The notes: a model not told the origin generated them from the letters alone. A stretch of 64,000 nt of DNA from a virus (IMGVR_UViG_3300034095_001474:96001-160000); one strand, 5' to 3'. Shown: positions 9,259-49,098, counted from the stretch's first letter. Numbers and translations are program-made.

Positions 9259-9331
9259 TGTACCCGAAGAGATTCGAACTCTTGACCCCTCCGTTAAAAG
9301 CGGAGTGCTCTACCAACTAAGCTACGAGTAC
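9259..9331 (-). tRNA. tRNA-Lys(TTT)
   Basis: Cloverleaf, CTCCG-CT TTT AA-CGGAG. Confidence 0.92.
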
Positions 9332-9337
9332 ATATAG

Positions 9338-9411
9338 TCTCCCCGATTGGGCTCGAACCAATGACTCTCGCATTAAAAGTGCGATACTCTAGCCAACTGA
9401 GTTACGAGGAG
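9338..9411 (-). tRNA. tRNA-Lys(TTT)
   Basis: Cloverleaf, TCGCA-CT TTT AA-TGCGA. Confidence 0.9.
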
Positions 9412-9456
9412 ATATTATTTTTCCAATAACACTCGTAACCATTATGGCCGAGTGCC

Positions 9457-9498
9457 TTATTCCTTTTTCTTTCGCTTGATGTTGATAAGTGTTTTCAT
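9457..9498 (-). CDS. Lys-rich mini-leader ORF MKTLINIKRKKKE upstream of the tRNA-Lys pair
   Basis: Manual translation; followed by GCACTCG/CGAGTGT hairpin. Confidence 0.5.
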   Translation of the reverse strand: MKTLINIKRKKKE

Positions 9499-9533
9499 AA
9501 TTTAATAGTTTTTAATTTTTTTATAATAACGTC

Positions 9534-9632
9534 AGTAGGACTTAAAGGGAACCACTCATTTCTATCCCTTCATCAAACGGTAATTATCCGTTATTTGGCG
9601 TAATCCATACATTGCTGCACGTGTATCCTACT
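9534..9632 (-). ncRNA. CAGCAA-motif stem RNA (copy J)
   Basis: AGTAGGA/TCCTACT closing stem, GTGCAGCAA near the 5' end. Confidence 0.45.
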
Positions 9633-9637
9633 TATTG

Positions 9638-9709
9638 AGCGAGAAATGGGATTCGAACCCACGACCCTCTGGTTGGTAACCAGATGCTCTACCACTGAGC
9701 TATTCTCGC
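9638..9709 (-). tRNA. tRNA-Gly(ACC), A34
   Basis: GCGAGAA/TTCTCGC acceptor, U73, TCTGG-TT ACC AA-CCAGA. Confidence 0.88.
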
Positions 9710-9713
9710 ATTG

Positions 9714-9786
9714 AGCTAAAAATCAGAATCGAACTGATAACCTCTTCATTACTAGTGAAGTGCTCTACCAATTGAGCTATTTCAGC
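9714..9786 (-). tRNA. tRNA-Thr(AGT), A34
   Basis: Cloverleaf, CTTCA-CT AGT AA-TGAAG. Confidence 0.88.
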
Positions 9787-9845
9787 ATTGAGTGTGGTAG
9801 GTCAGCTGAACCTTGAGGCACCCACACTAGTTATCCCTCTTTTTG

Positions 9846-9916
9846 TGCAGAATGAGGGAGTCAAACCCTCGCCTCGGACTTGGAAGGCCCATGTGCTTTC
9901 GTAACACCTATTCTGC
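9846..9916 (-). tRNA. tRNA-Gly(TCC), somewhat degenerate
   Basis: GCAGAAT/ATTCTGC, TGGGC-CT TCC AA-GTCCG, T loop TTTGACT. Confidence 0.72.
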
Positions 9917-10008
9917 AAATTTCGAAGAAAGACAGTCACGGCCACCGCTGGAAATTCTTCTAATGTTAAAGTTTTGGCAAAATGTGGCTCGACCCAAATT
10001 AACACTTG

Positions 10009-10081
10009 AGCCTCAGATGGGACTCGAACCCATAACCTACTGATTACAAATCAGTTGCACAGCCAATCGTGCTCCAGAGGC
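10009..10081 (-). tRNA. tRNA-Thr(TGT)
   Basis: ACTGA-TT TGT AA-TCAGT. Confidence 0.88.
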
Positions 10082-10153
10082 AAATTGATTTTTATTATCC
10101 CCTTGAACTATGTCAAGTACATGGTTAAAAATCTAAATTCTACCTTAACTAAG

Positions 10154-10235
10154 TGAGGCTAGTAGGAATCGAACCTACTCAGCTTACGCAACAGATTTAC
10201 AGTCTGCCCCAGCTCTCCAACTCTGGCGTATCCCC
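10154..10235 (-). tRNA. tRNA-Tyr(GTA)
   Basis: GCAGA-CT GTA AA-TCTGT, long variable arm. Confidence 0.88.
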
Positions 10236-10242
10236 AAATAAC

Positions 10243-10302
10243 AGAATGGCATGTTGATTTTCAAATCCAAATTGAAGCTTTTTAATTTGCTGCAACCATT
10301 CT
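10243..10302 (-). ncRNA. CAGCAA-motif stem RNA (copy A) with an anticodon-like hairpin
   Basis: AGAATGG/CCATTCT stem, TTGCAGCAA, inner TTCAA-TTTGGAT-TTGAA. Confidence 0.5.
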
Positions 10303-10306
10303 TTAG

Positions 10307-10380
10307 ATGTCCGAGAGGGCTTCGAACCCCCAGATTCTCCCTTCAAAGGGGAGTGACTTTGCCAGTTTGTCTATCGGACA
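10307..10380 (-). tRNA. tRNA-Gln(TTG)
   Basis: U1-A72, CTCCC-CT TTG AA-GGGAG. Confidence 0.9.
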
Positions 10381-10437
10381 ATAATCTAATTCTACGCTCC
10401 GTTGCACACGGTCTATGAATTAGTAACAATCTGACAG

Positions 10438-10511
10438 TCGAATAAGCTGGATTCGAACCAGCGTGCTCGGCATTCCAAATGCCGCTAGATAAACCGCTCC
10501 TATACTACTCG
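10438..10511 (-). tRNA. tRNA-Pro(TGG)
   Basis: CGGCA-TT TGG AA-TGCCG. Confidence 0.86.
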
Positions 10512-47200: not shown

Positions 47201-47208
47201 ATATTTGT

Positions 47209-47285
47209 TGGAGGACTAGGTGGGACTCGAACCCACGACTTTCGCATTAACAGTGCGGAGCTCTAACCAACTGAGCTACCAATCC
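47209..47285 (-). tRNA. tRNA-Asn(GTT), encoded CCA
   Basis: CGCA-CT GTT AA-TGCG. Confidence 0.88.
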
Positions 47286-47295
47286 TTATTTTTTG

Positions 47296-47368
47296 TGCTC
47301 CCAGAGAATTACGATATCCCGACTTCCGCATTATGAGTGCGACACTCTGACCTCTGAGTTATGAGAGC
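47296..47368 (-). tRNA. tRNA(CAT), Met or Ile2
   Basis: CGCA-CT CAT AA-TGCG, atypical T loop. Confidence 0.8.
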
Positions 47369-47962
47369 TTATTTGTTGTTAATTTTGTGATGTATTTCTC
47401 TATGACAATTTGCACATACCATAATACATTTATCTAATTCTACTTTAACCTTTTCCCACGATAATACAGAATATGAACCTATAGCAAAATCTTTTTCTTT
47501 TGGGTCTAAATGATGGAATTCTAATGCTGAATCACATCTATCATATCCACATTTTCCACAACAACCACCTTTATATTCAATAGCTTTTTCTTTTAACTTT
47601 TGACGGAAGTTTTTAACTTTTTGATAGTTTCTAATTTTTAACTCTTCATCACTTAATTTAACGTACTTATTATTTGTATGTTTAGTTACTGTTGATTTAC
47701 CTATGCTAAATTTAACCATACAATCCTCAATTGTATTATTTTTATAGAATTCATTTAACTCATATATTTCAAGTTCAGTTAATTTAACCCTTTGTTCACT
47801 AATTAGATTTCCACCTAAATTATTATTATTACAATGAAACGAAATAGTACTTTTGGTACAACCCAACACTTTAATAATTTCATTATAAGTTTTACCTTCG
47901 TTTCTCAACGATAATATATTTTCTTTTAAACTCGTAGCCATATCCATATCATGTTTTTTCAT
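47369..47962 (-). CDS. HNH homing endonuclease with an N-terminal HTH, inside tRNA operon 4
   Basis: GGCCGKCGY...LEFHH...KCIMVCANCHREIH. Confidence 0.88.
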   Translation of the reverse strand: MKKHDMDMATSLKENILSLRNEGKTYNEIIKVLGCTKSTISFHCNNNNLGGNLISEQRVKLTELEIYELNEFYKNNTIEDCMVKFSIGKSTVTKHTNNKYVKLSDEELKIRNYQKVKNFRQKLKEKAIEYKGGCCGKCGYDRCDSALEFHHLDPKEKDFAIGSYSVLSWEKVKVELDKCIMVCANCHREIHHKINNK

Positions 47963-47999
47963 AAATATACTAAGAGTTCGAAAAAAGTCAAGTTATTTG

Positions 48000-48080
48000 T
48001 TGGGGTAATGGGATTTGAACCCACATTTGCAATAACCAGTTACGAATATACACGTTATCAGCGTGCCTCGATATACCCCA
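48000..48080 (-). tRNA. Atypical tRNA-Ile(GAT)-like: no D arm in place, D-like hairpin after the anticodon arm
   Basis: TGGGGTA/TACCCCA, GCACG-CT GAT AA-CGTGT, GTAA-CTGGTTA-TTGC, T arm. Confidence 0.6.
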
Positions 48081-48091
48081 AGATGATGGAA

Positions 48092-48280
48092 TTACTTCCA
48101 TCTTGTTTTTCTGTAGTGTTTCCAAGTTTTATACATTCTAACTTGATAACTCATTTTGTTTCCATAGAAACTAATACCTTCATCCCAATATATTGGGTAA
48201 AAATCATTGATTAACATGATTCGGTATTGTCTACTATTTTGTGCTTTGTTCAGTTTTGCTCTGTTAATGTTAATGCTCAT
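48092..48280 (-). CDS. Small basic protein (TWKHYRKTRWK)
   Basis: C-terminus resembles that of 27176..27397. Confidence 0.5.
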   Translation of the reverse strand: MSININRAKLNKAQNSRQYRIMLINDFYPIYWDEGISFYGNKMSYQVRMYKTWKHYRKTRWK

Positions 48281-48400
48281 AATGTTGTGAGTCTGTGAAT
48301 AGCAGACCTTACAACATATCAAATTTCTTTTTCATAGTTTTAAATTATTAGGTTATAACCTTATATTGTATCATTATTAGGTCTAGACCTAATAATCTTG

Positions 48401-48487
48401 CGGAGAGGGAGAGATTCGAACTCTCGGAACCCTTTCGGGTCCACTGGTTTTCAAGACCAGCACCATAAACCACTCGGACACCCCTCC
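48401..48487 (-). tRNA. tRNA-Ser(TGA)
   Basis: CTGGT-CT TGA AA-ACCAG, long variable arm. Confidence 0.93.
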
Positions 48488-48493
48488 AGTTAG

Positions 48494-48564
48494 CACGACT
48501 AGTAGGATTCGAACCCACATCAAGGGATTTGGAGTCCCGTATGCTACCATTGCACCATAGTCGT
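48494..48564 (-). tRNA. tRNA-Trp(CCA)
   Basis: GGGA-CT CCA AA-TCCC, G73. Confidence 0.9.
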
Positions 48565-48603
48565 GTATTTATTAATAACCAATACGTCAAAGAACTTTTC
48601 TTT

Positions 48604-48679
48604 TGGGGTGACTGAGGAATTTCGAAATCCCGACCTCTAGAATCACAATCTAGCACTCTTCCTCTGAGCTACAGACACC
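48604..48679 (-). tRNA. tRNA-His(GTG)
   Basis: G-1/C73, CTAGA-TT GTG AT-TCTAG, encoded CCA. Confidence 0.9.
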
Positions 48680-48850
48680 ATTTATTGTAACCATTATAAT
48701 AATGTTACCTTTTTCTTTTTTAAATCTTAGGTCACCGTTGTAACCCAAGTCTTTTGCTTTTTGTTTAAACTTATCAACTACTGCATCAAAGTCTTTTGTG
48801 AACTTATCCGCTTTTACCGTTCCGAGTGTTCTAACCAATTCTTCTTCCAT
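48650..48850 (-). CDS. Hypothetical protein between terminator 4 and tRNA-His; 3' end overlaps the tRNA
   Basis: ORF track. Confidence 0.5.
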   Translation of the reverse strand: MEEELVRTLGTVKADKFTKDFDAVVDKFKQKAKDLGYNGDLRFKKEKGNIIIMVTINGVCSSEEEC

Positions 48851-48863
48851 AACTTATAGGCAT

Positions 48864-48893
48864 AAAAAAAAGCCTTGATTGTAGTCAAGGCTT
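48864..48893 (-). terminator. Attenuator terminator of tRNA operon 4
   Basis: AAGCCTTGA-CTACAA-TCAAGGCTT plus a U tract. Confidence 0.88.
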
Positions 48894-48918
48894 CTTTGTT
48901 AATATTATCTGGAGTGTT

Positions 48919-49017
48919 TTACCACTCTATGATGTCATTAAGCATACCTTGACCGTTATGGTGACTATTGCGTCTCCAATTCGAAATCGAAATCATATGT
49001 ATGTTAATTGTTCTCAT
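48919..49017 (-). CDS. Leader peptide of tRNA operon 4 (R/I/N/H/M/S/W)
   Basis: MRTINIHMISISNWRRNSHHNGQGMLNDIIEW; GTCAAGGT complementary to GCCTTGAC. Confidence 0.82.
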   Translation of the reverse strand: MRTINIHMISISNWRRNSHHNGQGMLNDIIEW

Positions 49018-49067
49018 CGTTTTTATATTAAATATATTGTTTTTTCTAAAAGTTTTAATTTATACTA

Positions 49068-49098
49068 CAAATGTACGAACTTTATTTTGATTTGTCAA
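49068..49098 (-). promoter_or_regulatory. Bacteroidota-type promoter for tRNA operon 4
   Basis: TTGACA...TACATTTG, then AACTTTTAGAAA...ATATTTAA. Confidence 0.8.

Follow-up and report, generated by a model that had tools for sequence, protein, structure and literature searches.

Candidate leader-peptide attenuators upstream of tRNA arrays in large phages of Bacteroidota

The 64,000-nucleotide (nt) stretch of DNA analysed here (IMGVR_UViG_3300034095_001474:96001-160000; hereafter the window) is A+T-rich, with approximately 32% G+C, and carries almost every gene on its minus strand. We read it as part of a large uncultured freshwater phage with a Bacteroidota host. Near-identical DNA is present in many lake-water metagenomes, the Bacteroidota-type promoter motif (C)GTACATTTGT occurs 18 times where 1.6 occurrences are expected, every one of them on the minus strand, and megablast of the window against INPHARED returned tRNA-sized matches only and no close relative. 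Genes for transfer RNA (tRNA) were called with ARAGORN and Rfam (cmscan); ARAGORN finds 33 tRNAs and a transfer-messenger RNA (tmRNA), to which Rfam adds four further tRNA hits. The subject of this study is four tRNA arrays in the window, each of which follows a short open reading frame (ORF) and an intrinsic terminator.

Four tRNA arrays behind a common upstream module

Upstream of all four arrays, on the minus strand, lies the same succession of features that a preliminary description of this DNA had proposed in outline: a promoter (TTGACAAAT...CGTACATTTGT), a 26-nt box, an A-rich stretch, an ORF of 24-32 codons that starts with M-K/R-T, a G+C-rich hairpin with a T-run, and then the tRNA genes. 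Module 1 comprises a promoter at 11649-11680 (TTGACA-N17-TACATTTG), a partly palindromic box at 11621-11646 (AACTTTTAGAAA-N6-TATATTTA), leader ORF 1 at 11482-11577 (MKTTFITYQPKQTQGGKPSVSGVLYLLSNEE) and an intrinsic terminator at 11424-11457 (AAACCCGA...TCGGGTTT plus T-run). The corresponding features of module 2 are a promoter at 25358-25389, a box at 25330-25355 (AACTTTTGGAAA-N6-TATATTTA), leader ORF 2 at 25199-25291 (MKTLTNIFDFAFNFAAEADESLGRSSIIIS) and a terminator at 25143-25174 (AAAAGCTCTGA...TCAGAGCTTTT plus T-run). Module 3 has its promoter at 28846-28877, its box at 28818-28843, leader ORF 3 at 28722-28796 (MKTINTLHVLLLCLLAVDGVGYVC) and its terminator at 28660-28693 (GAAGCCCATCTAA...TTAGATGGGCTTT plus T-run), with tRNA-Cys beginning 3 nt later; for module 4 the promoter lies at 49067-49098, the box at 49029-49054, leader ORF 4 at 48919-49017 (MRTINIHMISISNWRRNSHHNGQGMLNDIIEW) and the terminator at 48864-48897 (AAGCCTTGA...TCAAGGCTT plus T-run). 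The terminator hairpins have folding energies of -14 to -19 kcal/mol, are followed by 6-9 T and stand 3-190 nt before the first downstream gene. The box, AACTTTTRGAAA-N6-TATATTTA with a spacer of exactly 6 nt, is found in the window at the four module sites only; a fifth box-like site at 52436-52447 was examined and is not a leader. A generic promoter and terminator scan added nothing to these assignments and missed the minus-strand call for terminator 4.

Array 1 (9258-11328) encodes Pro, Pro, Gln, Tyr, Thr, Gly, Thr, Gly, Lys and Lys tRNAs, the two Pro genes being separated by an ORF at 10555-11208. In array 2 (23212-25060), the proximal part holds Phe, Glu, Glu, Asp (24587-24657, Rfam only) and Ala, and the distal part consists of ORFs, including one with DUF5522, a promoter at 23866-23876, another Phe gene and an odd tRNA-like gene with a GTA anticodon. 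Array 3 (26826-28657) runs from Cys through small ORFs to Val, Val, Leu(TAA) and Leu(TAG). The fourth unit (46190-48850) opens with a conserved 66-amino-acid ORF (48650-48850) followed by His, Trp, Ser(TGA) and an Ile(GAT)-like gene (48000-48080), and continues with an ORF at 47369-47962, a CAT tRNA (47296-47368), three Asn genes, a second gene with the CAT anticodon, Arg(ACG), an ORF, Arg(TCT) and Ser(GCT). Both CAT tRNAs may be read as Met or Ile2; Rfam contributed one of them (47296-47368) as well as the aberrant Ile(GAT)-like gene and the Asp gene of array 2. The arrays do divide the amino acids into the non-overlapping sets of 6, 4, 3 and 7 that had been claimed for them, namely {P,Q,Y,T,G,K}, {F,E,D,A}, {C,V,L} and {H,W,S,I,M,N,R}, which together make 20.

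Several of the genes within the arrays are unusual in themselves. The type-I tRNA-like gene that ends array 2 (23212-23336, minus strand) carries a 51-nt insert in the anticodon loop, and the Ile(GAT)-like gene has a 20-nt insert in its variable region and a poor D arm. The ORF at 10555-11208 has a GIY-YIG-like N-terminal motif and no Pfam hit; that at 47369-47962 ends in a CxxC...CANCHxxIHH motif resembling HNH and gives weak helix-turn-helix (HTH) hits. These two minus-strand ORFs probably encode homing endonucleases that have interrupted the arrays, a call that relies on motifs judged by eye, Pfam having returned only DUF5522 and weak HTH hits for the array-internal ORFs. Between terminator 4 and the tRNAs, an ORF of 57-66 amino acids (M.EELVR.LG...FD..VDK...GY.G.L.F.KE.G), with no matching Pfam family, is found in the window and in two of the related contigs described below (L022, 4045-4227; L013, 8590-8763). 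Because it is located directly after the terminator and before the tRNAs, it would be co-regulated with those of array 4.

Leader codons and the tRNAs encoded downstream

The preliminary description had also claimed that each leader peptide is rich in the amino acids of the array behind it, and shuffling, alternative pairings and comparison with other small ORFs all bear this out. When every residue after Met1 is counted and no control region is chosen, 65 of 113 residues belong to the leader's own array, compared with 29.0±4.6 (maximum 52) when residues are shuffled among the four leaders (z=7.9; none of 200,000 shuffles reached 65). Of the 24 ways in which leaders can be assigned to arrays, the true one scores highest, the remaining 23 giving at most 47. 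Uninterrupted runs of array-matched residues extend over 12, 7, 7 and 18 positions in leaders 1-4, longer than in all 271 other ORFs of 20-40 codons in the window; the control runs read TYQPKQTQGGKP in leader 1, FDFAFNFAAEADE in leader 2 and VLLLCLL(A)V in leader 3. For 19 of the 20 amino acids, codon density is highest in the leader of the corresponding array, where chance would give one in four.

As judged from the encoded anticodons, the leader-array match goes beyond the amino acid, down to the tRNA isoacceptor or codon box. In leader 4, each of the 18 control codons has an anticodon in array 4 that reads it: AGA and CGC correspond to Arg(TCT) and Arg(ACG), TCG and AGT to Ser(TGA) and Ser(GCT), and ATT and ATA to the Ile(GAT)-like and CAT tRNAs. 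Likewise, leader 1 uses GGC and GGA before Gly(ACC) and Gly(TCC), and leader 3 uses TTA and CTT before Leu(TAA) and Leu(TAG).

A scan of IMG/VR with the conserved box yielded 25 loci, which fall into two clades. Relatives in clade A agree with the window in their four leader types and in the array behind each; clade B has only two leaders, B1 and B2. The frame of the ORF is kept in homologues, and in alignments of types 3 and B1 the insertions and deletions inside the ORF measure 3 nt and those after the stop codon 1, 2 or 4 nt. Homologues of type 1 shuffle the order of residues and keep their composition (TYQPKQTQGGKP, TYQPKQYTQGKP, TTTTYKTQYQPKGGKP), which argues for selection on codon content rather than on the peptide. 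It is therefore very unlikely that the ORFs encode functional micropeptides, or arose by chance upstream of constitutive terminators, with an incidental match in composition. No specific support for such an origin was found, and the conserved N-terminus, M-K/R-T-(I/T)-N, is the feature closest to it; chance is excluded by the shuffle and small-ORF controls, and the C-terminal residues change in such a way that RNA pairing, and not the peptide, is kept.

Leader composition follows tRNA content where phage lineages divide the code differently, as the attenuation idea had anticipated: three lineages split it into 4, 2 and 3 blocks, and the leaders go with the blocks. In clade B, B1 (MKTTNRHMNICNPSIQWSFNVYRTLKSH...) precedes Thr, Gln, Pro, Lys, Val, Tyr, Asn, Ile(GAT), His, Arg, Arg, Trp, Phe, Cys and Leu(TAG), and its control part is without D, E, G and A; B2 (MKNLHIILLGGLAIAEDRSY...) precedes Leu(TAA), CAT/Ile(TAT), Gly, Asp and Glu. 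Every Leu codon in the ten B1 leaders is a CTN codon, and of the 23 Leu codons in the six B2 leaders 22 are TTR; Ile codons are ATT in B1, before Ile(GAT), and mostly ATA in B2, before Ile(TAT). Over the six leader types, which are not fully independent, 41 of 42 array amino acids are present in the control region of their own leader (Fisher p=3e-16). Some clade-B phages also encode a TTG (Gln) tRNA of 85 nt with a long, type II variable arm (L020, 2989-3073; L003, 7055-7139; L008, 8030-8114), in place of which their sister contigs have a normal 72-nt Gln tRNA beside Ser(TGA).

The same architecture occurs in Cellulophaga phage phi4:1 (NC_021788.1), a cultured marine phage whose DNA is unrelated to the window except for its tRNAs. 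Three leader/terminator modules lie at 6715-6842, ~7678-7815 and 9421-9572. The first leader (MKIQRLHLQELEQP...) precedes Pro, Glu, Gln, His, Leu, Leu and Arg(ACG); the second, which starts with GTG (QLTKTGITVIDKTKGARA...), precedes Ala, Lys, Ile, Gly, Met, Asp, Thr, Val, Arg(TCT) and Met; and the third (MKTNYCTYNNSNWSFSY...) precedes Tyr, Ser, Asn, Trp, Phe and a Cys-like gene. The gene gp075, annotated as 'hypothetical protein', overlaps the second leader. Own-array residues number 47 of 78, compared with 25.9±3.8 after shuffling (0 of 200,000 shuffles reached the observed value), and Arg is encoded by CGT in the leader before Arg(ACG) and by AGA in that before Arg(TCT). Gly tRNAs keep company with P/Q/Y/T/K in the window, L/I/A/E/D in clade B and A/K/I/M/D/T/V/R in phi4:1, and the Gly codons of the leaders move along with them; at the level of sequence, this is a natural swap experiment.

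The division of codons between leaders bears on what they would sense. Their anatomy equals that of trp, his and ilv attenuators, and a stalled ribosome reports on charged tRNA whatever the cause of its scarcity. Real leader-peptide attenuators might accordingly answer to amino-acid starvation, through poor charging, instead of to a shortage of particular tRNAs. We consider this unlikely, since extra tRNA gives no relief from amino-acid starvation, and since sensing of amino acids needs no split by codon box of the kind seen where isoacceptors lie in different arrays (Leu CTN/TTR and Ile ATT/ATA in clade B, Arg CGT/AGA in phi4:1). This codon-level split favours tRNA shortage as the signal.

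Antiterminator pairing and the proposed attenuation

Each leader terminator has a candidate competitor within the preceding ORF. When the RNA is cut before the terminator 3′ arm, the 5′ arm (region 3) folds back onto a stretch late in the ORF (region 2), which lies at 11501-11518 in leader 1, 28723-28742 in leader 3 and 48945-48953 in leader 4 (GTCAAGGTA). To allow for composition, the final 16 codons of 32 distinct leaders were each paired with the 5′ arms of all terminators; 15 of the 18 leaders that belong to types 1, 3, 4 and B2 found their strongest partner in their own arm when it was set against the arms of other leader types. Homologues carry compensatory changes that span regions 2, 3 and 4. 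In type 1, ATCGGGT/ACCCGAT in the window corresponds to ACTGGGT/ACCCAGT in L001; in type 3, GGGCT/AGCCC alternates with GGGTT/AACCC; in type 4, GTCAAGG/CCTTGAC in the window corresponds to GTCGGGT/ACCCGAC in L013 and L022, so that the peptide is altered and the pairing kept; and in B2, GGAGATGG/CCATCTCC alternates with GGAGAGGG/CCCTCTC. The proposal that a late segment of the ORF is complementary to the terminator 5′ arm thus holds clearly, and with covariation, for leaders 1, 3 and 4, whereas the complementarity is weaker in leader 2.

The folding of these leaders was further modelled with a 30-nt ribosome footprint moved codon by codon along the ORF. In nascent transcripts that end before region 4, a footprint on the array-matched codons leaves region 3 sequestered, with P of 0.6-0.75, and a footprint beyond the matched codons leaves it free, at 0.1-0.3, in all six leader types. 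The boundary between the two states coincides with the end of the array-matched run. Within these models, the profile is of the polarity expected if stalling of the ribosome leads to read-through.

Taken together, these features make it likely that the modules are trp-style, ribosome-mediated attenuators of phage tRNA blocks and act as a codon-resolved sensor of tRNA supply. The geometry of ribosome-mediated transcription attenuation, recognized in the preliminary description, is supported by the conservation of frame, the isoacceptor-level codons, the terminators, the covarying antiterminator and the footprint profile. Transcription would start at the Bacteroidota-type promoter, and a ribosome would translate the short leader ORF, in which the first ~15-20 codons after the start are those predicted to be read by the tRNAs encoded downstream. 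Were the matching tRNAs scarce, decoding would slow and the ribosome would linger on the control codons; region 2 would then be free to pair with region 3, no terminator would form and the polymerase would read into the tRNA genes. With fast decoding, the ribosome would cover region 2 as region 3 emerges, the terminator would form and transcription would stop. The supply of tRNA would thereby be adjusted to decoding demand by negative feedback, separately for each of four non-overlapping codon sets that between them account for the 20 amino acids. We infer that the leaders are translated, how strongly and in which direction the modules would respond, and what would trigger them physiologically; candidates are phage codon demand, host tRNA loss and tRNA-cleaving defences, besides the starvation and anticodon nucleases named in the preliminary description.

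The attenuation model has also to be weighed against several observations that do not sit easily with it. Full-length leaders folded at equilibrium keep the terminator at any ribosome position, with P of ~0.95 for leaders 3, 4, B1 and B2 and a drop in leader 1 only, which makes leader 1 a partial exception. Any switch must therefore be kinetic, a kind on which equilibrium folds of complete leaders are uninformative. In the trp operon of E. coli, the terminator hairpin is likewise more stable than the antiterminator. The ORFs of leaders 1 and 4 extend 6-9 codons past region 2, so that region 2 lies outside the footprint of a ribosome that has reached the stop codon. According to the model, the no-stall state of these two leaders must depend either on a ribosome that still covers region 2 when region 3 emerges or on pairing between regions 1 and 2, a pairing that is observed in full-length leader folds. 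The comparison of own with other terminator arms failed for types 2 and B1, which have no strong direct complementarity; their antiterminator would be a weaker composite helix built from loop bases and from bases that precede the arm, its strand in leader 2 lying at ~25206-25222. In type-2 homologues the terminator sequence is invariant and thus offers no material for a comparison of covarying bases. Every leader contains some residues foreign to its array, which lie chiefly within codons 2-7 and the structural 3′ portion. Finally, some clade-B contigs (L003, L020) are without several of the array tRNAs and have an almost unchanged leader; leaders therefore track tRNAs by block and not gene by gene.

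Promoter-like sites downstream of two terminators likewise count against full control by the leaders, for part of the tRNA transcription may bypass the attenuator. One (TTGACA..TACATATA) lies between terminator 1 and the first tRNA-Pro, at ~11345-11384, and another, with a second consensus -7 box (TGTACATTTGT) that is conserved in relatives, lies between terminator 2 and tRNA-Phe, at 25072-25082, both on the minus strand. The attenuators may therefore modulate only part of the transcription of tRNAs in arrays 1 and 2; neither room nor a promoter-like site exists between the terminator and the downstream genes of arrays 3 and 4. As the arrays are interrupted by ORFs with promoters of their own, such as that at 23866-23876, and by homing-endonuclease-like genes, distal tRNAs may not depend on the leader. 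The earlier proposal that only the matching operon is transcribed is softened by the extra promoter-like sites of arrays 1 and 2.

These same sites would suit a mainly DNA-level control, in which internal promoters or a phage or host protein bound to the box ACTTTT(N1-2)AAA(A)G(T) set expression, and the mini-ORF and terminator provide a fixed basal level or insulation. The spacing of the box is invariant and the box is conserved in both clades; the dyad inside it, ACTTTTAGAAAG in the window, becomes a perfect palindrome, ACTTTTGAAAAGT, in the second leaders of clade B (L003, L018-L020, L024), where it sits between TTGACA and TATATTTA. The box may be an operator, an element of the 5′ untranslated region or a second, overlapping promoter. 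As the main form of control, however, regulation at the DNA level seems quite improbable, for it leaves unexplained both the match between leader codons and tRNAs and the covariation of region 2 with the terminator, and it could operate alongside attenuation.

A search with a 3.2-kb stretch listed no RNA dataset that contains it. Four lake metatranscriptome or RNA-labelled runs hold relatives' contigs only, at 90-95% identity and 2-6x coverage, one of which spans terminator 4 and another of which reaches into the promoter; such contigs cannot show transcript ends, and carry-over of DNA into these runs is possible.

Genomic setting, known attenuators and implications

Genes for the maturation and repair of tRNA adjoin the arrays. 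This toolkit, all on the minus strand, comprises a CCA-adding enzyme (PolyA_pol head domain, 52437-53552), an RlaP-family nucleotidyltransferase of the RNA-repair pathway (29254-30429), a protein with a PARP catalytic domain (33236-34543), a full DnaJ (59953-60978) and an ATP-dependent DNA ligase (36810-38207). Also on the minus strand, a tRNA with the CTA anticodon of amber suppressors (55024-55095), labelled 'Pyl' by ARAGORN, stands immediately behind its own TTGACA promoter; this tRNA raised the possibility of TAG recoding, for which the ORF statistics of the window give no signal. The phage-encoded tmRNA (57925-58303, minus strand) has the tag EATFVSNGELAVA. Just upstream of it (58310-58357) is the motif ACGTTCTTTAA, which recurs at 56946-56956 after a promoter at 56983; this promoter heads ~430 nt without an obvious ORF and then a marginal tRNA(CAT) at 56430-56501 (27 bits), and Rfam searched at an E-value threshold gave no credible match for 56400-57050. 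A 'Tyr(ATA)' call at 20808-20879 (minus strand), made by ARAGORN only and without Rfam support, is one of three aberrant tRNA-like genes in the window.

Short translated leaders rich in regulatory codons, an intrinsic terminator and an antiterminator strand that depends on ribosome position are features that the phage modules share with the leaders of enterobacterial amino-acid operons, such as trpL, hisL, leuL and pheL. Closest in mechanism are the multivalent attenuators of ilvGMEDA (Ile/Leu/Val) and thr (Thr/Ile), in which one leader senses several amino acids, as in the phage modules. The latter differ in their Bacteroidota phage context, in that a single leader would sense as many as 7 amino acids in the window and 16 in clade B, with a match at the isoacceptor level, and in that they would regulate tRNA genes in place of biosynthetic enzymes: downstream of the leaders are tRNAs, small ORFs and homing-endonuclease-like ORFs, and not amino-acid biosynthesis genes. 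No gathering-score match to the Rfam amino-acid operon leader families (Thr, Leu, Trp, His, Phe) was obtained, cmscan of the window and 15 related loci returning tRNA and tmRNA only.

Closest in logic is the E. coli pheST operon for phenylalanyl-tRNA synthetase, which has an attenuator with the Phe-rich leader pheM. Here, too, leader-peptide attenuation acts on the translation machinery and feeds back on the decoding capacity for the sensed codons, but pheST is cellular and encodes a synthetase for one amino acid, whereas the phage modules would control tRNA arrays. T-box riboswitches resemble the modules in reading the state of a specific tRNA by transcription attenuation and in controlling translation-related genes. 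Unlike the phage leaders, which are ORFs with many different sensed codons, a T-box needs no ribosome and itself binds uncharged tRNA, by means of a specifier codon and the T-box sequence. Neither the window nor the related loci gave a match to the T-box (RF00230; specifier loop and T-box sequence).

The usual debate on phage tRNAs is about why phages carry them at all, with codon compensation set against escape from tRNA-targeting immunity. Excerpts of three sources present phage tRNA clusters as codon compensation or as counter-defence against tRNA-cleaving immunity, that is, like the arrays of the window, as sets that replace or supplement host tRNAs; these excerpts concern tRNA function and contain no mention of demand-sensing control of tRNA genes (PMC10264068, PMC11555353, PMC11464382). 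Consistent with the view taken in the preliminary description, a literature search that included Cellulophaga phages found no description of leader-peptide attenuation of phage tRNA genes.

We suggest, as a tentative generalization that may well not hold, that large Bacteroidota phages carry a codon-resolved tRNA homeostat, in which a few attenuated regulons would each use the leader as a live assay of isoacceptor decoding speed. Removal of tRNAs, for example by anticodon nucleases, would then induce only the matching array, as an inducible, ribosome-sensed counter-defence. If the modules act as attenuators, they would be a first example of tRNA genes whose expression depends on how fast their own codons are decoded, a logic known in the literature we found only for amino-acid operons and one synthetase operon. 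The prediction that would decide between the hypotheses is that depletion of one isoacceptor induces its own array alone. Since the architecture recurs in uncultured lake phages and in the cultured marine phage phi4:1, this is testable at the bench, and the leaders might also help to read the decoding identity of odd phage tRNAs.

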